Virus record (IMG/VR): IMGVR_UViG_2737471860_000002
Location: 1 to 26,886 of that record
Reading direction: 5' to 3' (one strand)
Length of the DNA stretch: 26,886 nucleotides
From: a virus
Lineage: Duplodnaviria; Heunggongvirae; Uroviricota; Caudoviricetes
This document shows, one piece after another, positions 11,289-23,327 of the stretch (positions within the stretch are counted from its first letter, which is position 1; the number at the start of each line of letters is the position of its first letter). Below the pieces are notes generated by a model that was not told the origin of the DNA, made no database searches, and saw only the letters and a list, made by a program, of their open reading frames with translations. The position numbers and the translations under genes were made by a program.

Positions 11289-11865
11289 GGATCACGTCGT
11301 TAATTTCAGTGTGTTCGCCGCAGCGCAGCGTTGCCCCGAGGCGCAGGAAGTCCGGGAGCGTGGCGAGATCAATCTCTTCATCCAGCCGGAATTCCTGCTC
11401 CCACGTCACCGCCCACATGGTGACGCCCAGCCCGTCGAGGCTGACGGAGTAAATGTTGTCTGCCCGCACATCAGCAGCCATGCGTTCAGCCCCCATGCCC
11501 CAGGTGGCATCCGACGACAGCAGACGTTTGATCACCTTTCCGGTCAGGACTTCACAGCGCACGTCGCGGGAGTACCCCCACGAATCCGTTGCCATGATGT
11601 AAGCCACCCAGGTGACCAGACCGGACAGCCCGCCACGCGGGTTGATATCCCGGACACGCAGGGCCGCGACACGGATACAGCCGGTGCGACCGGACAGATA
11701 GCGTTTCACTTCCTCCGGGCTGTTGAACTGGCCGATGTGACGCTCCACCACGCTGGCCCGGTCGGGGGTATCCCCCTGAAGTACTGTTTTCAGCCAGGCC
11801 ACAATGCGCTCTGCGGCCGCAACGGTGCTCCCCGGCGTGCGCAGTTCAGGGCGTTGTTCTGTCAT
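11254..11865 (-). CDS. Neck/tail-terminator candidate (Mu gp37/gp38-like)
   Basis: 203-aa ORF between head-completion genes and the sheath; 4-nt overlap with the upstream gene. Confidence 0.5.
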   Translation of the reverse strand: MTEQRPELRTPGSTVAAAERIVAWLKTVLQGDTPDRASVVERHIGQFNSPEEVKRYLSGRTGCIRVAALRVRDINPRGGLSGLVTWVAYIMATDSWGYSRDVRCEVLTGKVIKRLLSSDATWGMGAERMAADVRADNIYSVSLDGLGVTMWAVTWEQEFRLDEEIDLATLPDFLRLGATLRCGEHTEINDVIHVRGDDGTETD

Positions 11866-12407
11866 GGCAGAACCTCCTTCCAGAAATGACTGATAACCTG
11901 TTGCAGCTCCTGCTGGTTGGCAGAAGACAGCCCCAGAAATTCACGTTGTGGAATGTTCATCATGCGGTTATGTGCGCCGACGGTCTGCCAGACCGGATAT
12001 TTCAGCGCCCGCCCGAAACACTGCGAGATAAGTCGTTTGTGGGCGCTGACCGGCACACTGCCGGAAAAGCCGTCATTCATGATGCGGGCATAATCCAGCG
12101 GTGAACCGATACGCACCACGCGGTTTTCCACGATGTACTGGATACTCTCCAGCAGATGGCCTTCACCACGCAGCAGACTCTGGTTGCCGTGGCGGGTCTT
12201 TTTGTACCCGTCAGACCAGTCCGGCCAGCGTTCGCCACCCGGACTGGTTTTCTCATCGATGATGCGGCGGCGGGTCTGTGATTCCACCACCGCACCGATG
12301 CTCTCCAGCAGCTCTGCCTGCAATGAACCATCTGCCAGCTTTTCAACGGCGCGGCGGATATCCTCCAGACGCTGGTCACCGCTGACCTGTACAGAAATCC
12401 CCATCAC
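11862..12407 (-). CDS. Phage virion morphogenesis protein (Mu G / P2 S family-like)
   Basis: 181-aa ORF; internal SLLRGEGHLLESI motif resembles the virion-morphogenesis family signature. Assignment by pattern only. Confidence 0.45.
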   Translation of the reverse strand: MMGISVQVSGDQRLEDIRRAVEKLADGSLQAELLESIGAVVESQTRRRIIDEKTSPGGERWPDWSDGYKKTRHGNQSLLRGEGHLLESIQYIVENRVVRIGSPLDYARIMNDGFSGSVPVSAHKRLISQCFGRALKYPVWQTVGAHNRMMNIPQREFLGLSSANQQELQQVISHFWKEVLP

Positions 12408-13223: not shown

Positions 13224-14129
13224 TTATGCCGGGGTGGTGATGTACGGGCTGTCCACGATCTCCACATCCTTGTACCAGATGTTGGAATCGCCGCCGTTAA
13301 CCAGCATGGCGTCAATAATGAGCTTCGCGTCCGCACGGTTTTTCGGCCCCACCACAAGGGTGGTCGGGCGGATGCCCAGTGGTTCACCGTTGGTGCCCTT
13401 CATGCCCCGCAGTAACTCATTGGCTTTTTTGTAGTTCTCCACCGTCAGTGCCGCACGGGAACCGACGGCGGTCTGCCAGAAGCCGAAGCCTGCATTACAG
13501 CGACCGTCCACCCCGTACAGGAATTCGTTATTCTTGAAGGTGTGCTCGCTGTTCAGATCGTCCAGGGCTTCAAACTTAAAGGCGCGTCGCGTCTGCCAGA
13601 TAATGGGTTTCAGTACCTGCGACTCATCAATCAGGAACCACGGCTCACCCTTGTCTGATGCCGGGGTGCCGACAACGTTGCTGTACGTGCCGTCACCCAG
13701 CGGGTGGTCTTCATCAAAGAAGTTCTGGCCGTCAAAGCACAAAGTTTTGAATCCGGCACACAGCAGGGCGTAACACAGCTTGTCCGGGAACACGGCTGTC
13801 ATACGTCCATAGCGTTCAGCAGTAATGCTGTACTGACCAATCTGGTCATCTTCAATGTGTTCGCGCTTAACGCGAATGGAACTTTCCCAGAGTTTGTTGG
13901 TGATGGTGTAACCATAACCGTCCAGCGTTGCCAGCTGACGCTCACCGACCCATTCTTTGATGTCCGGTAAATCTTTCATCCAGCCGTAAGTGTTGGAGGC
14001 GGACGAACTCGGCACCTCAGAAGCAATGCGATTCCACTGCGGTTCGACACCACTCAGTCCACGGGTAAAGGCGGCGCTCAGGCAGGTGGTCAGTGCATGA
14101 AGGATTTCAGAACTGACAGTCTGTCCCAT
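13224..14129 (-). CDS. Major capsid protein (Mu gpT-like)
   Basis: 301-aa ORF immediately after the protease/scaffold gene (1-nt overlap); size and position match the Mu-type major head subunit. Confidence 0.75.
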   Translation of the reverse strand: MGQTVSSEILHALTTCLSAAFTRGLSGVEPQWNRIASEVPSSSASNTYGWMKDLPDIKEWVGERQLATLDGYGYTITNKLWESSIRVKREHIEDDQIGQYSITAERYGRMTAVFPDKLCYALLCAGFKTLCFDGQNFFDEDHPLGDGTYSNVVGTPASDKGEPWFLIDESQVLKPIIWQTRRAFKFEALDDLNSEHTFKNNEFLYGVDGRCNAGFGFWQTAVGSRAALTVENYKKANELLRGMKGTNGEPLGIRPTTLVVGPKNRADAKLIIDAMLVNGGDSNIWYKDVEIVDSPYITTPA

Positions 14130-15091
14130 TAGTTGTTCTCCTGTTTTGGTTTAGCGGCGAGGAACTCTTCCCCGGTAATACCCATGCTGCGACACATCGC
14201 CAGTTCGGCGTCGGTCAGTGTCTGCGCGGGTTTATCCTTGCCCTGGCTGGGCTTGTCGTTGTTCACCAGCGGCTGTGTACCTCTGGTGTATTCCGCAAAC
14301 TGTTTACGGCCTTCTTCCGTGCGACAGGTGGCAAGGAACATGTCACGGTTTGCCGGGGCCACTTTTCCGGCTTCGATGGCCGCATCCACAAGCGCTTCTG
14401 CTTCCTTCTCTTCAAGTTGCTGAAGGCGTTGTTCTGCGGTTTCGGCACGGTTCAGTGCCAGATTGTGGGTTTCCACCGGCACAAACTTCGTCAGGTCAGG
14501 TGTCTGTGCGCGGTTCAGCGCCACCTGTTCGTTCTCCTGAAGTTGTTTAATGGCGGCCACGGTATCGTCCACCGTGGCAGATTCAGCCAGCCCAAGCAGG
14601 CCGGTGATTTGCACAGGTACTGTCATCGGGTTTTTCTCCGTATTCAGTGCAGGAAAATCCAGGTTAGGTTTGTTGGTCAGCCCGACGCTGGACAGGCGTG
14701 TCACCACACCCTCCGCGTCATGGAAAAACGCCGGGCTGTAATAGCGGTAGCGGCGCTCGCTCAGCATCCAGCGGGCGGACTCACTCCAGGCAACACGGCC
14801 TTCAATGGTGCCGCTGTCCGTCACCCGCAGTTCTTCAACCCAGCCATACGCCGGAGCATCTTCACCACGCGGGCCTTTAATTTCGGTGGCGTGTTCAATG
14901 TCCACCGGAATTTTGATGTCGGACGAACGGGCAACCACCTCATGCGGATTGCGGTTAATCCACGTCCGGCCATCGCGCCCGGTAAACTCACCCGCAGGAA
15001 CGAGTTCAAACCATTCCGGCAGTTGAACAGGTGTCAGCTCAGGGATAGGTTCTGGCAGGGAAAAACACAGCGCCAGCAGTTCCGGTTGCAT
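14129..15091 (-). CDS. Head maturation protease with C-terminal scaffold domain (Mu gpI-like); candidate internal scaffold start at 14626
   Basis: 320-aa ORF; C-terminal half is coiled-coil-like. In-frame internal ATG at 14626 preceded by GGAG about 10 nt upstream. Confidence 0.7.
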   Translation of the reverse strand: MQPELLALCFSLPEPIPELTPVQLPEWFELVPAGEFTGRDGRTWINRNPHEVVARSSDIKIPVDIEHATEIKGPRGEDAPAYGWVEELRVTDSGTIEGRVAWSESARWMLSERRYRYYSPAFFHDAEGVVTRLSSVGLTNKPNLDFPALNTEKNPMTVPVQITGLLGLAESATVDDTVAAIKQLQENEQVALNRAQTPDLTKFVPVETHNLALNRAETAEQRLQQLEEKEAEALVDAAIEAGKVAPANRDMFLATCRTEEGRKQFAEYTRGTQPLVNNDKPSQGKDKPAQTLTDAELAMCRSMGITGEEFLAAKPKQENN

Positions 15092-15140
15092 GTCAGTCTC
15101 CGTCGTTTTGGGTTACCGACGGTCAGTATGCGGGAGGCAG

Positions 15141-15164
15141 AAAAAAAGCCGGATTTACCGGCTT
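15141..15164 (-). terminator. Intrinsic-terminator-like hairpin (7-bp stem AAGCCGG/CCGGCTT, 5-nt loop) followed by a U7 tract on the minus strand; copy A of a duplicated 38-bp element
   Basis: Stem 15146-15152 pairs with 15158-15164; the plus-strand A7 at 15141-15147 is the minus-strand T-run. A near-identical element occurs at 22840-22877. Confidence 0.55.
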
Positions 15165-15184
15165 CACTGAAAACAGGGAAATAC

Positions 15185-15227
15185 CCCTTCAAAACCCCTT
15201 CAAAAACGCCACAGCGCCTTCAAAAAC
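15185..15227. repeat. Three direct repeats of CCTTCAAAA(A) in the F-I intergenic region
   Basis: Read directly: ccccttcaaaa / ccccttcaaaaa / gccttcaaaaa within 43 bp. Confidence 0.6.
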
Positions 15228-15279
15228 GTCATGGCATACACTCACGCCATCAGAATAAAAAACGCGTTTCTGGTGCGTT

Positions 15280-16056
15280 TCAGGTGGGATTTACGGCGCT
15301 GTCAAATCGGGCCTGTTTTGTCGCCAGCTGGCGCGCCAGTTCCTGCTCACGGTTTATGCCGGGATTGTAGTTCCAGCCCGGATCAATCCCTTCCGGCACA
15401 TCTTCCTCTTCGCCCGTACGTTTGTTCACCCAGCGGACAGTTCTGATTTCCGGCGCTTCGGTGTGAATGGTGCCCTGTGCCGCCAGTTGCGCATATTCAC
15501 CACGGCTGACCTGACGGATGGTGCATTTGCATCCCCAGCCGTTAGGGGCAAAATGTGTCTGCCAGAACGGATGATCCACCGGCAGACACAGACGCGCCCA
15601 TTTCACATGCTCCGCCCGGTGCTCACGGGATGGCCCCAGCTCATAAATCAGATACGGCATGGCCCGCTTTGTCCGCTGAATGCGTTCCCACTGGCCCGCC
15701 GCGCGGGCGGTGCGCATGTTGGTGTCAAAAATCGTGCGGAGGCGGCGGTCGCTGCCCAACTGTACTGTGCGCGTTTCGCCCGTCAGCGGATCATCCATCT
15801 CCTGAACGCCCCACCATCCGCGTTTTATCAGCAGCGGTTGCAGCGCCTCCCGGAACTCGCTGAACGTCTGCCCGCTTTGCAGGGCGTCTTCCACAAGGGC
15901 TTTCACATCCGACAACAAATCCAGTTGCAGCATTTTTGCCACGGTGAAGCTGTTCCGGTGCTCTTCCCGCCATACATCCCGGTAATCAAAACCGGGGCGC
16001 AGCTTCTTCGCCTTCAGCCACGCCAGCGCCTCTTTCGGGATGAGGGTTTCACGCAT
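15280..16056 (-). CDS. Mu F-like head morphogenesis protein
   Basis: ORF track gives 15280..16113; I place the start at the Met at 16056 (MRETLIPKEA...), giving an 8-nt overlap with the portal stop. Position after the portal gene. Confidence 0.65.
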   Translation of the reverse strand: MRETLIPKEALAWLKAKKLRPGFDYRDVWREEHRNSFTVAKMLQLDLLSDVKALVEDALQSGQTFSEFREALQPLLIKRGWWGVQEMDDPLTGETRTVQLGSDRRLRTIFDTNMRTARAAGQWERIQRTKRAMPYLIYELGPSREHRAEHVKWARLCLPVDHPFWQTHFAPNGWGCKCTIRQVSRGEYAQLAAQGTIHTEAPEIRTVRWVNKRTGEEEDVPEGIDPGWNYNPGINREQELARQLATKQARFDSAVNPT

Positions 16057-17620
16057 GAGCAGCGTCTCCCAGCGCACGCGCCTTAAAGCACACCTCTGCC
16101 AGTTGCAGGGCAAAGTCGTCCGCGTTCAGCGTTTCCTGAAGCTCAGGCAGGCGTTTCAGAAAGTCATCAAAACTGTCGCATTCCTGCGCCAGTGTCAGCA
16201 CCGGGTTCGTGAACGCCTCGCCGGTTTTCTGCCAGTCACGCAGGGCATCATCCACCATCTGTGCCAGTTCGTCGGGGTGTTCCCGGTTCAGGGCGACGCG
16301 CTCGCGGTTCATCGCCATTTCACCCGGCATCCCGGCGGAAATCGGATGCAGAACATCAGCCCCTTCGTCCGGTTCAGCCAGGCCGAACCGGTCCCGCAGC
16401 TCCGATTCCTGAACCCGCATCCCCCGGTCAATCAGCGGCACCAGAGCATCTGTCAGCGCCTTCAGATCTTCTGCTTCACTGATACGCAGAACAACACGGG
16501 GGTAGTGCGCCTGTGGCCCGTAGTTGGCCTCGATATAGGGACGCACCAGATATTCATTCAGCGTGTTAGCCAGCTGTCGCGCGTCCCAGCGCACAATGTC
16601 CATGCGCACCTGATTGTGCACGTCCGCCTGTGAACGCGAACTGCCGTTATCCGTGGTCATGGTCTGCCCCAGCACAGCCTTACTGATTTGTGCATCACAC
16701 CATTCCGCCATTTCACGGAACAGTGCGCCGCCGTTATTCCGGCTGGCGGTTTCCTGCATCTCCAGTTGCATAGACTGCGGAATGGCACACCCTGCATCCG
16801 AGGCAATGGAGGCAATCGCATCAATCAGTACGCGGATTTGCTCCTCCGTGGCGTTGGGACCGTATTTCCCCACCGTAACCGGAATGCCGAATTTTTCCGC
16901 GAATGCCCACCAGTCACGCACGGTATAGGATTTCAGCATGTACATCACCGCCACCAGACGGGCCAGACCGTTACGCAGCGGCAGACCGGATTTCAGACGC
17001 GGCTGGTGAACAATGAATTTTCCCGGTGTCAGCGGTACGCCATCCACCGGTTCATCGTCAGTCAGCAGGCGGAACTGGCGCAGCGTGGGCTTTTCGGCTT
17101 TCAGGAAACGGGGATCAACCCACTCATAATCACGGGGCACCCAGTGGTTGTTGCGGGTGTTCCACAGAATTTCACAGACCGCCACGCCTTTTCCCAGCCC
17201 GTCGAGCAGATCAAACATCAGTTCGGGGATTTGCGGCGCGGCCATCAGCTCACGGATGGCATCCGCCAGCTGCACATCGGCATCGTCGTCACTGGCAGCC
17301 ACCACCACCGGCTCGATACCCGCCACCGTCAGCTTGCGGGTGCGCAGTACCGAGGCGTAATGCAAATCGCGTTCTTCCATCTCTTCGGCAAGGATAAAAA
17401 AATCACGCGTGATGCCGTCGGCGGCATTGCGCAGAATGCCTGCCAGCCTGCCGGGATTCAGCCCGGAAGCAATGCTGATGCCCGGCGAGGCCGAGCGCAC
17501 GCCAGCCTGACGCGGACGGGCCTGTATTTCATCGAGCGTCTCTTTTTTGAGCCTGTCTTCCTCACCGGTTGCCGGGTTCAGCAGACGGCGAACGGCCCCG
17601 GCCAGTTGTTTCAGGTTCAC
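16049..17620 (-). CDS. Portal protein (Mu gpH-like)
   Basis: 523-aa ORF directly after the large terminase (ATGA overlap); size and position typical. Confidence 0.75.
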   Translation of the reverse strand: MNLKQLAGAVRRLLNPATGEEDRLKKETLDEIQARPRQAGVRSASPGISIASGLNPGRLAGILRNAADGITRDFFILAEEMEERDLHYASVLRTRKLTVAGIEPVVVAASDDDADVQLADAIRELMAAPQIPELMFDLLDGLGKGVAVCEILWNTRNNHWVPRDYEWVDPRFLKAEKPTLRQFRLLTDDEPVDGVPLTPGKFIVHQPRLKSGLPLRNGLARLVAVMYMLKSYTVRDWWAFAEKFGIPVTVGKYGPNATEEQIRVLIDAIASIASDAGCAIPQSMQLEMQETASRNNGGALFREMAEWCDAQISKAVLGQTMTTDNGSSRSQADVHNQVRMDIVRWDARQLANTLNEYLVRPYIEANYGPQAHYPRVVLRISEAEDLKALTDALVPLIDRGMRVQESELRDRFGLAEPDEGADVLHPISAGMPGEMAMNRERVALNREHPDELAQMVDDALRDWQKTGEAFTNPVLTLAQECDSFDDFLKRLPELQETLNADDFALQLAEVCFKARALGDAAHA

Positions 17621-19152
17621 AGTAAACCTCCCTCATTTTTCAGGCCGCGTGTCAGCTTCATCTGGCGGCGCGCGTTGCGTTCTTCCGGTTTTGCCGGGCG
17701 GTTCAGGCGGTGCAGCTCGTAACGGTGGCAGTCATCTTTACTGGCAAGGAAGCCCAGGAAAATGGCCACAGCGGCGTCGCCGTGACGCTTGCGGCCATCG
17801 CTGCCTTTAGTACGGGTATCGTCAATGCCGGGAACGCCACGCAGTAACTGAATGGCCCCGAGGTCATTGATCACGTCTTCATGCTTCGGAAGGATCAGCT
17901 CATCATCTTCAAATGCTGCACGGAAACGGGGCATGTTTTCGCGGTAGAACGCCACGGACAGCATCACCTGTTCCACTTCGTCGCCGTACCGCTCCGCCGC
18001 CTGTTCTGCCAGATACTGACCATTCCCCCGCGCATCCATTTTGATACCGTCACGACGGGGCAGACGATCGCAAAGCCAGAACAGCACCTGCTCCTGCTGT
18101 TTAAACGGCACATTGCCAAGCTCAACCAGGAACGGCACCTCGCGGGTGGTGTCATTGTTCACCGTCACCGGGGCCAGTACGGTCAGGTCACCCGAACGCG
18201 CAAAGTCTTCCCCCAGACAGTGGCGCAGGTTCTTCGGGAGTTTTTCCAGTTCAGGGCGCACCACTGTTTCCAGCCATTCCCGGATATCTGCCCGGCGCTG
18301 GCTTTCCGTCAGTGCGTTAAATTCCGGTGTGCCGGTAAAGCGCAACACTTTCCCGGTGCCACGGGCCGCACGTTCACGCAGTGAGCGGGGGATATACGTG
18401 CCGCCGCCGTTTTTCGGGACGCAGTAATATTCCTCCAGTGCGTCTTCGCGGGTGGCGGTATTTCGCAGCAGGCCTTCTTTCCATTCCGCCTCGGCTTCCG
18501 GTGACCACACCATGCCGCGCACCTGACAGATACGCCGGTACAGCCCGTCATTGCAGGCGTCGTCCAGCGTGATGGTGTGAATGCTGTAATCTTTTTTGCC
18601 CGCGCGGCTTTCCTGAATCAGCTGGTTAAACAGGTTGTCCACGCCGTCATGGGTGGAAATAAGGCGAATTTTGCCGCCCCATGTTTTCAGCGGCAGCACA
18701 GCCTTCAGCAGCTCGTCCAGTTTTTCATGGAACGCGGCTTCGTCGATGGTGACATTCCCCTGCATCCCGCGAATGTTGCTCGGGTTGCTGGACAGTGCCT
18801 TGACCTTAAAACCGCTGGCGAAGTACACGACGAACGTCAGAATGGCCTTGTCTTCGTCGGTGATCACTTCCTCGCAGATTTCTTCCGCTGCCGCATTAAA
18901 CGCTTTCGCCCACATCGCCACGGCGTCGATAAATTCGCGGGCCATCTCCTTATTCGAACCGATATAAAAGTGATCGCGCCCGCCGTCTTCCTTCTTCAGC
19001 GATGCCGTCAGTGCCGCATCTGCCGCCTCCGCCCAGGTTAAACCGGTACGGCGGGATTTCTCTGCAATTTTCAGGTCGGCATCATCCGCCACCCAGCGTT
19101 TCTGATACGGCAGCAGGACATCGTATTCACTGAATGTGTTCATCCTGGTCAT
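17617..19152 (-). CDS. Terminase large subunit
   Basis: 511-aa ORF after the small terminase (4-nt overlap); N-terminal Walker-A-like KSRRTGLT and acidic C-terminal nuclease-like region. Confidence 0.75.
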   Translation of the reverse strand: MTRMNTFSEYDVLLPYQKRWVADDADLKIAEKSRRTGLTWAEAADAALTASLKKEDGGRDHFYIGSNKEMAREFIDAVAMWAKAFNAAAEEICEEVITDEDKAILTFVVYFASGFKVKALSSNPSNIRGMQGNVTIDEAAFHEKLDELLKAVLPLKTWGGKIRLISTHDGVDNLFNQLIQESRAGKKDYSIHTITLDDACNDGLYRRICQVRGMVWSPEAEAEWKEGLLRNTATREDALEEYYCVPKNGGGTYIPRSLRERAARGTGKVLRFTGTPEFNALTESQRRADIREWLETVVRPELEKLPKNLRHCLGEDFARSGDLTVLAPVTVNNDTTREVPFLVELGNVPFKQQEQVLFWLCDRLPRRDGIKMDARGNGQYLAEQAAERYGDEVEQVMLSVAFYRENMPRFRAAFEDDELILPKHEDVINDLGAIQLLRGVPGIDDTRTKGSDGRKRHGDAAVAIFLGFLASKDDCHRYELHRLNRPAKPEERNARRQMKLTRGLKNEGGLL

Positions 19153-21983: not shown

Positions 21984-22194
21984 TGAGTTTTTCCTTGTAC
22001 TTCTGGCACTGCCAGAAAATGTCCCGTGTATCCACGGAGTTCCAGCCACGCATGTAGTAGCTGGCGTGTGTGCCGTCATGGCCGGTATAGTCCAGCGGTT
22101 TCGGGGGCGGACCTCCGGCCATGCGGTGCAGAACCTCCTGACGCAGGCGGTCACGCCGCCCGGCTTTCAGTGAGGCATCCCAGCCTTTACCCAT
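21967..22194 (-). CDS. Small basic hypothetical protein (75 aa) immediately after the endolysin
   Basis: 8-nt overlap with the endolysin stop, consistent with translational coupling. Confidence 0.45.
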   Translation of the reverse strand: MGKGWDASLKAGRRDRLRQEVLHRMAGGPPPKPLDYTGHDGTHASYYMRGWNSVDTRDIFWQCQKYKEKLNAQNE

Positions 22195-22792
22195 ATCCCC
22201 CCCGCGTGGCGGACATGATGCCTGGAGGGGTATTGATGATTTCCAGACAGGCGTCGGTCAGCTTTTCCATGCGGTTAAACCATCCGTTCAGGTATTTGCC
22301 CTGGGCGGGTTTTGATTTGATGATGTCGGCATAAAAGCGGGAACGACGGACAATGCAGCGGGTCAGCAACCAGTCCGGGGTGGACAGGCTCACGGCCTTA
22401 CGGGTACGCGGGCCGATGATGCCGTCAGCATCCACATCAGCGGCTTCCTGCAAAATCCTGATGGCTTTTTTAACGCCATGCTGAACCGCCGCATCGAACA
22501 CAAACATCGCCACGCCATCAGGCCACTGGTCACATCCGGCAGGCAGCCAGTAATCGCGCCAGTAAATCTGCGCAACCTGTTCGCGGGTCAAATCCCTGAT
22601 GCGGGTATCCGGTTTGCCGTCGCCGTTGACATCAGTTTTGCCATCAATCACACCGTCGCGGCGGTCAGAAATGCCGTATTTGGTTTCACCGCCACGGTCA
22701 GTGGGGTCATTGACATAGACGCCTTCGATATCGGGACGCAGAATAAAATTCAGCGCATGCTCAAAGGCTGGGGAGAATTTTTGATTTTCCAT
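22187..22792 (-). CDS. Endolysin, GH108-type lysozyme with C-terminal peptidoglycan-binding domain
   Basis: 201 aa; N-terminal ...DIEGVYVNDPTDRGGETKYGISD... matches the GH108 signature (EGGY, NDP.D.GG.T..GI) as I recall it; first gene after the Mor-like gene. Confidence 0.75.
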   Translation of the reverse strand: MENQKFSPAFEHALNFILRPDIEGVYVNDPTDRGGETKYGISDRRDGVIDGKTDVNGDGKPDTRIRDLTREQVAQIYWRDYWLPAGCDQWPDGVAMFVFDAAVQHGVKKAIRILQEAADVDADGIIGPRTRKAVSLSTPDWLLTRCIVRRSRFYADIIKSKPAQGKYLNGWFNRMEKLTDACLEIINTPPGIMSATRGGYG

Positions 22793-22804: not shown

Positions 22805-22831
22805 GAAGCAGATTTAAACGTGGTCTGCTTC
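22805..22831 (-). promoter_or_regulatory. Hairpin (8-bp stem GAAGCAGA/TCTGCTTC, 11-nt loop) immediately upstream of the endolysin ribosome-binding site
   Basis: Inverted repeat read directly at 22805-22812 and 22824-22831. Confidence 0.4.
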
Positions 22832-22847
22832 ATGGTGCCGGAGGCAT

Positions 22848-22871
22848 AAAAAAAGCCGGATTTACCGGCTT
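22848..22871 (-). terminator. Intrinsic-terminator-like hairpin plus U7 tract directly downstream of the Mor-like gene; copy B of the duplicated 38-bp element
   Basis: Stem 22853-22859 pairs with 22865-22871; plus-strand A7 at 22848-22854. The wider element GGAGGCA-N-AAAAAAAGCCGGATTTACCGGCTTCA-N-TGA spans 22840-22877. Confidence 0.55.
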
Positions 22872-22877
22872 CATTGA

Positions 22878-23327
22878 TTAAGGGCGTCGTGGCGGACGAC
22901 GAACGGGGTGAGGCAGGTTCGGGGAGTGGTAGAACAAATCCGGCTGGTATTTATTACGCTCCAGACGCCGCATCCGTTTGATGGCCTTGTAGACGGTTTT
23001 ATACGTCACTCCGTAACGCTGAACCAGTTCAGGAATATTATGGCCGTTAAAATCACGCCAGATACGCATATCCCGGACAAGATTCTCCAGAATATTCCCC
23101 CTCGGAACATAAACCTGCATCCCGCCAATATGGCGACAAATCGCCACAACCAGCTCAAGGGAATGAGCAGGGTCTGCGCCAATCCGGGCCAGCTCTTTAC
23201 GCAGCAGTGCGTTCAGTTCAGAAAGTAACGCCGGATAAGCGGTGTTTTCCTGGTAATCGTTAAGATATTCCAGAACGCTGTCGTCCCGAAGGTCTTCGAA
23301 TAAATCCTGCTCTTTCATCTGTTTCAT
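22878..23327 (-). CDS. mor: Mor/C-family transcriptional activator
   Basis: 149 aa; strong resemblance by memory to Mu Mor (DLF.DL.DD..L..L, ALLAELN.LLR.EL.R.G.DPAHSLE.VVAIC.H.GG.QVY.PRG, RD.RIW.DFNG.N..EL...YGVT..TVYKAI.RMRR); lies directly after gemA as in Mu. Confidence 0.7.
   Translation of the reverse strand: MKQMKEQDLFEDLRDDSVLEYLNDYQENTAYPALLSELNALLRKELARIGADPAHSLELVVAICRHIGGMQVYVPRGNILENLVRDMRIWRDFNGHNIPELVQRYGVTYKTVYKAIKRMRRLERNKYQPDLFYHSPNLPHPVRRPPRRP

Follow-up and report, generated by a model that had tools for sequence, protein, structure and literature searches.

A probable Mu-like central control region between the F-like and protease genes of a Mu-type prophage

[quoted passage not shown] It belongs mostly to an already known kind of element and does not constitute a new kind of system. 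The sequence features, homology, conservation and position of the spacer were established directly. All genes in the window lie on the minus strand, and those that frame the argument are the following:

15280-16113, minus strand: F-like gene (PF04233)
14129-15091, minus strand: protease gene I (PF10123), with its ATG at 15091
13224-14129, minus strand: gene for the major head protein gpT (Pfam)
22187-22792, minus strand: gene for a GH108 lysin, lys (Pfam)
22878-23327, minus strand: gene for a Mor orthologue of 149 aa (PF08765)

Together with Gam, GemA, gp27, the large terminase and the portal protein, also detected by Pfam, they give the window the gene content of a Mu-type late region. An earlier note on this DNA had described a gap of 188 bp between F and the protease gene, and it indeed runs from the stop codon of the F-like gene to the ATG of I. 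Of 5,426 complete E. coli genomes, 49 carry prophages of approximately 95% identity, among them a complete one of 34,327 bp inserted in aaeB of E. coli PSS-15, the ends of which (locus L001, positions 2656 and 36982) are Mu's own attL and attR with a 5-bp CCGCG target duplication. The I protein is 27% identical to that of Mu, and its nearest phage relatives are those of Klebsiella phage Kp4866-3 (59%), Shewanella MuM16-2 and Vibrio martha. Since the att ends are those of Mu but the head genes belong to the Kp4866-3/martha group, the prophage is a mosaic in which a different late region is attached to Mor and a transposition module of the Mu type. Megablast of the region against phage genomes gave no match, distant blastn gave chance matches only, and a search of genome contigs with the I protein retrieved only remote relatives. 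The 3' end of the F open reading frame (15280-15305) is unlike that of the relatives, in which a TAA ends the frame approximately 25 nt sooner and 13-14 additional bases are present, so that their F-I spacer measures approximately 214 bp, against 188 bp in the window. A Mu G-like virion morphogenesis gene (L001 17856-18398, approximately 11862-12407 in the window) lies downstream of a gp36-like gene, whereas Mu places G between F and I. We rejected two small open reading frames of the spacer (ATG-GCG-TGA and one of 10 codons), which the relatives do not keep.

No strong gyrase site has been studied better than the Mu SGS, a standard substrate in studies of gyrase mechanism. Its presumed counterpart occupies the F-proximal half of the spacer, where we distinguish three segments:

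[quoted passage not shown]
15227-15250, minus strand: variable segment, the predicted cleavage core, aligned to Mu ATAAAATC^AGCC^GCACAG
15251-15279, minus strand: conserved stretch just past the F stop, containing a AAACGCGTTT palindrome (15260-15269)

The direct repeats that had been noticed earlier are present in exactly three copies in the window, reading CCTTCAAAA on the plus strand (15186-15194, 15197-15205 and 15217-15225) and TTTTGAAGG on the coding strand, with start-to-start spacings of 20 and 11 bp within the coding-strand block GACGTTTTTGAAGGCGCTGTGGCGTTTTTGAAGGGGTTTTGAAGGGG. Elsewhere in the window we found no 9-mer with three copies inside 45 nt, and 200 shuffled sequences yielded none either. 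The block is conserved at 95.8%, measured here and below as mean pairwise identity among 25 close relatives, which exceeds the synonymous-site baseline of 92.4% at third codon positions of the I gene. Its 10-11 bp A/T periodicity falls in the top 0.16-0.3% of the window; the right arm of Mu ranks first of 11,450 positions in its own locus. We considered transposase binding to the repeats and rejected it, given that the Mu end-site consensus does not fit. Near the left end of the PSS-15 prophage, at its Mu-type attL (L001 36761-36780), two TTCAAAA-type units stand 11 bp apart in the orientation opposite to that of the central repeats, which may be due to chance.

The GenBank record of Mu bears out the proposal that its G-I spacer holds both a gyrase site and the promoter PI: it annotates a gyrase cut at 17879/17880, 20 bp past the G stop, and beyond it a terminator and then PI. 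The Mu sequence immediately 3' of the cut, GATTTTTTAAAACGCGCCACGGGATTTTTAAACCGGTATTTAACGG, aligns unit for unit with the window block. A prophage of E. coli SE11, with F, G and I genes of the Mu type, carries the window repeat block in its G-I spacer at 95% identity (43-nt block, L006 4001-4043) and bridges the two. That this block is 95% identical, although Mu and the window have I proteins only 27% identical, suggests that the central block has been exchanged as a module. Alignment with the Mu G-I region, the check that the earlier note had proposed, shows homology with the SGS right arm at the repeats and, further downstream, a match between CCTCCCGCATACTGAC and the CCTCCCGCAAACTGAC of PI. 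The right arm is described as anisotropically flexible, as wrapping the C-terminal domain of GyrA and as essential for SGS activity, a description that the phasing and periodicity of the repeats fit (PMC10052514, PMC6379681, PMC13284261). Through the SE11 alignment and the A/T periodicity, the window block thus looks like a phased, flexible and Mu-homologous right arm. Like the Mu site, it lies 3' of a head-morphogenesis gene and 5' of I, with three alignable T-tract units. The two differ in the units themselves (TTTTGAAGG in the window; TTTTAAAAC, TTTTAAACC and ATTTAACG in Mu), in their spacing (20 and 11 bp against 21 and 12 bp in Mu), in the upstream gene, which is F in the window since the G homologue has moved downstream, and in the core, which varies among relatives and is not confidently alignable.

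By this alignment gyrase is expected to cut ahead of the first repeat at a distance of approximately 11-18 nt, which corresponds to about 15237-15244. The segment concerned (15227-15250) is the least conserved long segment of the spacer, its identity being 89.6%, whereas synonymous sites reach 92.4%. In the Topo-Seq weight matrix of Sutormin et al. (2018), the Mu SGS scores 14.3. From the published consensus sequence of Topo-Seq we built a template, a crude one of GC periodicity and not a weight matrix, which placed its best position in the window region at 15241-15244 (rank 6 of 26,754). The same template gave rank 3 of 11,369 in Mu, with the cut misplaced by 5 bp, and rank 2 of 7,911 in SE11, whereas in the PSS-15 relative the score was much lower (rank 94 of 42,083) and fell at a different position. 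Both the periodicity and the crude-template scores of the window are comparable with those of the Mu control. Plain matching of GC classes to the Topo-Seq consensus was discarded because GC content dominated it.

The repeats are also central, as a Mu-type strong gyrase site should be, lying at 46-51% of the length of six genomes: 48.7% in Mu, 48.1% in Kp4866-3, 50.8% in MuM16-2, 50.2% in martha, 50.5% in Vibrio phage 1.028.O and, measured in the complete PSS-15 prophage because the window stops short of the prophage ends, 45.9% from the left end, that is, 1.4 kb off-centre. The central sites of other Mu-like prophages examined by Oram and Pato (2004) were reportedly still cut by gyrase. Only the Mu site and, on the authority of a review, a single prophage site are known to work in vivo: among the alternative sites tried, only that of the E. 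coli O157 Sakai prophage promoted Mu replication, so that homology does not guarantee SGS activity.

The same three units, spaced by 20 and 11 bp, recur in five further Mu-like phages (Kp4866-3, the IMG/VR contig L034 with an I protein 56% identical, MuM16-2, martha and 1.028.O), and the genera with a triple repeat upstream of I comprise Escherichia, Klebsiella, Shewanella and Vibrio. A degenerate version of the pattern retrieved from IMG/VR 24 Mu-like I loci among the 239 matches listed, and in 21 of these 24 listed loci the repeat stands 134-280 nt 5' of I in the same orientation; the listed loci with both repeat and I include lineages approximately 30% identical to Mu I. The matches listed also contain many unrelated AT-rich contigs. 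We therefore rejected the degenerate pattern as a stand-alone signature, being too loose, and for the same reason only the I-adjacent subset of its matches is informative.

Other explanations of the repeats deserve consideration. They might form a bent-DNA element bound by nucleoid proteins (IHF, Fis or HU) that serves the I promoter or the compaction of the prophage, with no gyrase site, while the terminator and promoter would stand as described. We consider this unlikely, although several observations speak for it: the distance from repeat to I is fairly constant in most lineages (134-182 nt), as a promoter-linked role would have it, flexible AT-rich phased units are the DNA favoured by many bending proteins, the expected cleavage core is poorly conserved, and the Mu domain also relies on IHF, Fis and HU (PMC3820752). 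Against it, experiments have defined the homologous Mu sequence as the right arm of the SGS, and the repeat lies 278-308 nt from I in marine Mu-like phages and approximately 1 kb from it in two IMG/VR loci, still in central position. Moreover, the units vary between TTTAAA and TTTGAA across phages and their phase is kept, which fits indirect readout by wrapping and not a base-specific site.

Far less probable is a role of the block in RNA, as a structured 3' untranslated region, upstream of the terminator, that affects the stability or processing of the lys-to-F transcript. A 65-nt RNA does fold at -21.1 kcal/mol (z = -3.6), but the predicted helix consists mostly of G-U and A-U pairs, arising from a T-run followed by purines, the variation among relatives does not look compensatory, and the best Rfam match, sroD, reached 18.8 bits against a threshold of 50 and was rejected as noise. 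Least probable of all, and only marginally credible to us, is that the repeats are slippage debris and that only the terminator and promoter are functional in the spacer. The first inter-repeat spacer and the adjoining segments do vary, as slippage would predict, but the number of units, their orientation and their spacing persist across genera in which the I proteins share only 30-60% identity, and the 95.8% conservation of the block stands above the 92.4% synonymous baseline.

None of the models proposed for the spacer accounts for the conservation of the stretch just past the F stop (15251-15279), which reaches 98.1% against the 92.4% baseline. The short AAACGCGTTT palindrome reported there is present, but it is not beyond chance expectation, since the window contains 19 perfect 10-bp palindromes. 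It sits within a larger dyad, CATCAGAA-N12-TTCTGATG, or CA(C/T)CAGAA-N12-TTCTGATG, which the window carries with one mismatch. No U-tract follows the dyad, which is therefore not an intrinsic terminator; the stretch could form the left part of the gyrase site or be bound by a protein.

The I-proximal half of the spacer contains a compact cassette of overlapping signals:

15141-15165, minus strand: intrinsic terminator (8-bp stem with five G-C pairs, 5-nt loop, U7) at the end of the lys-to-F late operon
15153-15168, minus strand: Mor-type activator site AGTGA-AGCCGG-TAAAT, a 5-6-5 imperfect dyad overlapping the ascending stem and loop of the terminator
15125-15130, minus strand: predicted -10 element CATACT, at the same 22-nt distance past the Mor site that Mu Pm shows

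The hairpin (GAAGCCGG-TAAAT-CCGGC and then T7, from 15165 to 15141 on the minus strand; whole sequence GAAGCCGGTAAATCCGGCTTTTTTT) is predicted to fold at -12.6 kcal/mol (z = -3.4), and a GC-rich stem-loop with a U-tract at the end of an operon is what an intrinsic terminator should look like, so that termination is predicted here, with 3' ends at 15141-15147. It is conserved at 99.5% among the 25 relatives, and the terminator/promoter cassette as a whole at 99-99.5%, against approximately 92% at synonymous sites. The description of a terminator-like hairpin consequently holds, but the element is more than a terminator because it overlaps an activator site and recurs upstream of lys. Mu itself has comparable overlaps, since its annotated terminators after mor and after C also overlap the next activator site; the hairpin overlapping Pm, a predicted terminator in the Mu record, is presumably the early terminator t9.2.

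In Mu Pm, positions -57G and -54A precede a Mor dyad spanning -51 to -36, of 5-6-5 structure with a GC-rich spacer (PMC4390567, PMC4287176). This numbering places the Mu +1 at position 9224 of AF083977, with AGTAA-AGCCGG-TTAAT as the Mor site and TATCCT as the -10 element 22 nt further on. The activator site of the window is identical to this Mor site at 14 of 16 positions, and the Mu promoter sequence (AGTAAAGCCGGTTAATCCGGCTTTTTTTACGTCCTCAATATCCT) is nearly that of the window hairpin cassette. As in Pm, a 5-6-5 dyad centred at approximately -43.5 is followed by a -10 element, and a -35 hexamer is absent, CCGGCT occupying its place; by analogy with Pm, transcription would start near 15117. The spacer yielded no canonical sigma-70 promoter, and the proposed -10 hexamers here and upstream of lys (CATACT and CACCAT) are weak and were picked by Pm geometry. 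The -10 region also aligns with the CAAACT of Mu PI, sharing CCTCCCGCA[A/T]ACTGAC with it. A late promoter had been suggested at this place by analogy with the C-dependent PI. Its position and -10 region do match PI, but its recognition appears to be of the Mor/Pm type. C sites have the consensus TTAT-N5-6-ATAA at -43.5 (PMC12867686); we found no TTAT...ATAA upstream of the window -10 and, in the complete PSS-15 relative, a single annotated Mor/C-family gene, which is Mor-like, so that with neither the site nor a C gene the promoter is most likely not C-dependent. The resemblance to PI thus lies in the place upstream of I, the near-identical -10 region and a hairpin before the RBS, and the difference in the activator site and in the lack of a C gene in the related prophage. 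Kp4866-3 and L034 retain a Mor-type site and -10 element upstream of I, without the terminator stem.

A second copy of the cassette lies upstream of lys:

22836-22877, minus strand: second copy of the Mor site, terminator and spacer (93% over 42 nt), between mor and the GH108 gene
22832-22837, minus strand: predicted -10 element of the lys copy, CACCAT, in the place matching CATACT; predicted transcription start near 22824 and predicted 3' ends at 22848-22854

The similarity between the two copies extends 12 nt beyond the T-run, and in the whole related prophage only these two Mor-type sites were found. In relatives with an extra open reading frame after mor the cassette is still directly upstream of lys, and its travelling with lys argues for a promoter and not merely for the end of the mor transcript. 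The 42-nt copy implies a shared activator for lys and I, presumably Mor: the window protein has 63% identity with Mu Mor and 32% with Mu C, and its helix-turn-helix is near-identical to that of Mu Mor, as would be expected of the cognate activator. As in Mu, then, the cassette would unite a 16-bp site overlapping a GCCGG-loop-CCGGC-T7 hairpin, a weak -10 element at 22 nt and no -35 element, with a Mor orthologue encoded just upstream of one copy; the window differs in having two copies, predicted to drive lys and I, which are late genes in Mu, and no C-encoding middle operon. The phage appears to run a two-step cascade (early genes, Mor, late genes) with no C protein. Some relatives (L009 1094-1591, L010 1129-1608) encode a Mor of 133-136 aa and a 159-165-aa open reading frame between mor and the lys cassette. 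The spacer upstream of com-mom (L001 3603-3725) contains clustered GATC sites and no Mor-type site, and control of mom may differ from that of lys and I.

Between the predicted start and the protease gene, two further features adjoin:

15100-15122, minus strand: inverted repeat CCGTCG-N11-CGACGG, with its 5' arm between the -10 element and +1
15098-15101, minus strand: Shine-Dalgarno sequence GGAG ahead of the ATG at 15091, overlapped by the 3' arm of the inverted repeat

The lys copy has an inverted repeat at 22805-22831, with 3 nt between its 3' arm and the Shine-Dalgarno sequence. This layout recurs, with unrelated stems, at Pm, Plys and PI of Mu, in Kp4866-3, L034, SE11 and the Sp18-type prophage and in several IMG/VR lineages, and was present at every Mor/C-type promoter examined; in locus L002, inverted repeats at 219-249, 1450-1486 and 9027-9049 have their 5' arm directly after the -10 element and their 3' arm beside or over the RBS. 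At nine promoters the 10 nt after the -10 element pair with the RBS-proximal region better than in shuffled sequences (each p 0.001-0.07), the promoters being non-independent and the hexamers picked by geometry. Predicted folding energies are -8 to -14 kcal/mol for read-through RNA, against 0 to -3 kcal/mol for RNA beginning at the predicted +1, and only read-through RNA could form the RBS-side hairpin. A known precedent is gene e (lysozyme) of phage T4, the translation of which is confined to late transcripts initiated within a hairpin that masks the RBS. The likeness would lie in a 5' arm placed upstream of an activator-dependent start, so that only read-through RNA folds. The two cases differ in phage, promoter type and sequences, the 3' arm of the lys copy stops 3 nt before the Shine-Dalgarno sequence, and for the Mu family the reading is ours and uses predicted starts. 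A literature search found no description of such an RBS-hairpin arrangement for Mu, and this promoter-coupled hairpin may be new. Among related spacers, the F-I interval of marine Mu-like phages (L040 approximately 553-565; L041 and L042 approximately 563-578) is 310-340 nt long, with two terminator-like hairpins and, a short way 5' of I, a strong Shine-Dalgarno sequence and an ATG-TAA mini-ORF, and in an O157 Sp18-type prophage (L008 2065-2145) RefSeq annotates a 'tRNA-OTHER' between F and G on the opposite strand.

From these features we infer gyrase cleavage, Mor binding, the transcription start and an effect of the hairpin, which could be combined as follows. Gyrase would cleave the SGS homologue approximately 11-18 bp upstream of the phased repeats, and processive supercoiling that starts from mid-prophage would assist in pairing the two Mu-type ends for replicative transposition. 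Transcripts of the lys-to-F operon would end at the terminator (15141-15165). A Mor dimer bound to AGTGA-AGCCGG-TAAAT near -43.5 would recruit sigma-70 RNA polymerase to the weak -10 element CATACT, and transcription activated near 15117 would proceed through I and T (protease and capsid) into the downstream operon, the same Mor cassette also driving lys. The RBS-side hairpin would form only in read-through RNA.

Taken together across the family, these observations lead us to a broader reading, held tentatively and with somewhat less than even confidence: that a triple phased TTTRAA repeat (spaced by approximately 20 and 11 bp) 5' of the protease gene is the signature of a central gyrase site in Mu-like phages of many genera, that Mor/C promoters are generally coupled to an RBS hairpin with its 5' arm between -10 and +1, and that this lineage runs a Mor-only two-step cascade. 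What merits follow-up is the repeat signature shared across the family, together with the coupling of the hairpin to the promoter. If the reading is true, the central gyrase sites of Mu-like phages would be predictable from sequence, and efficient translation would be limited to transcripts initiated by the activator, as opposed to those arising by read-through. Variant units with unchanged phasing, together with the family-wide signature, would provide a comparative set on gyrase-site strength. For annotation, such hairpins should not be labelled as plain terminators. Finally, a relative of Mu that drives its lysis and head genes directly by Mor would bear on the evolution of the three-tier cascade of Mu.
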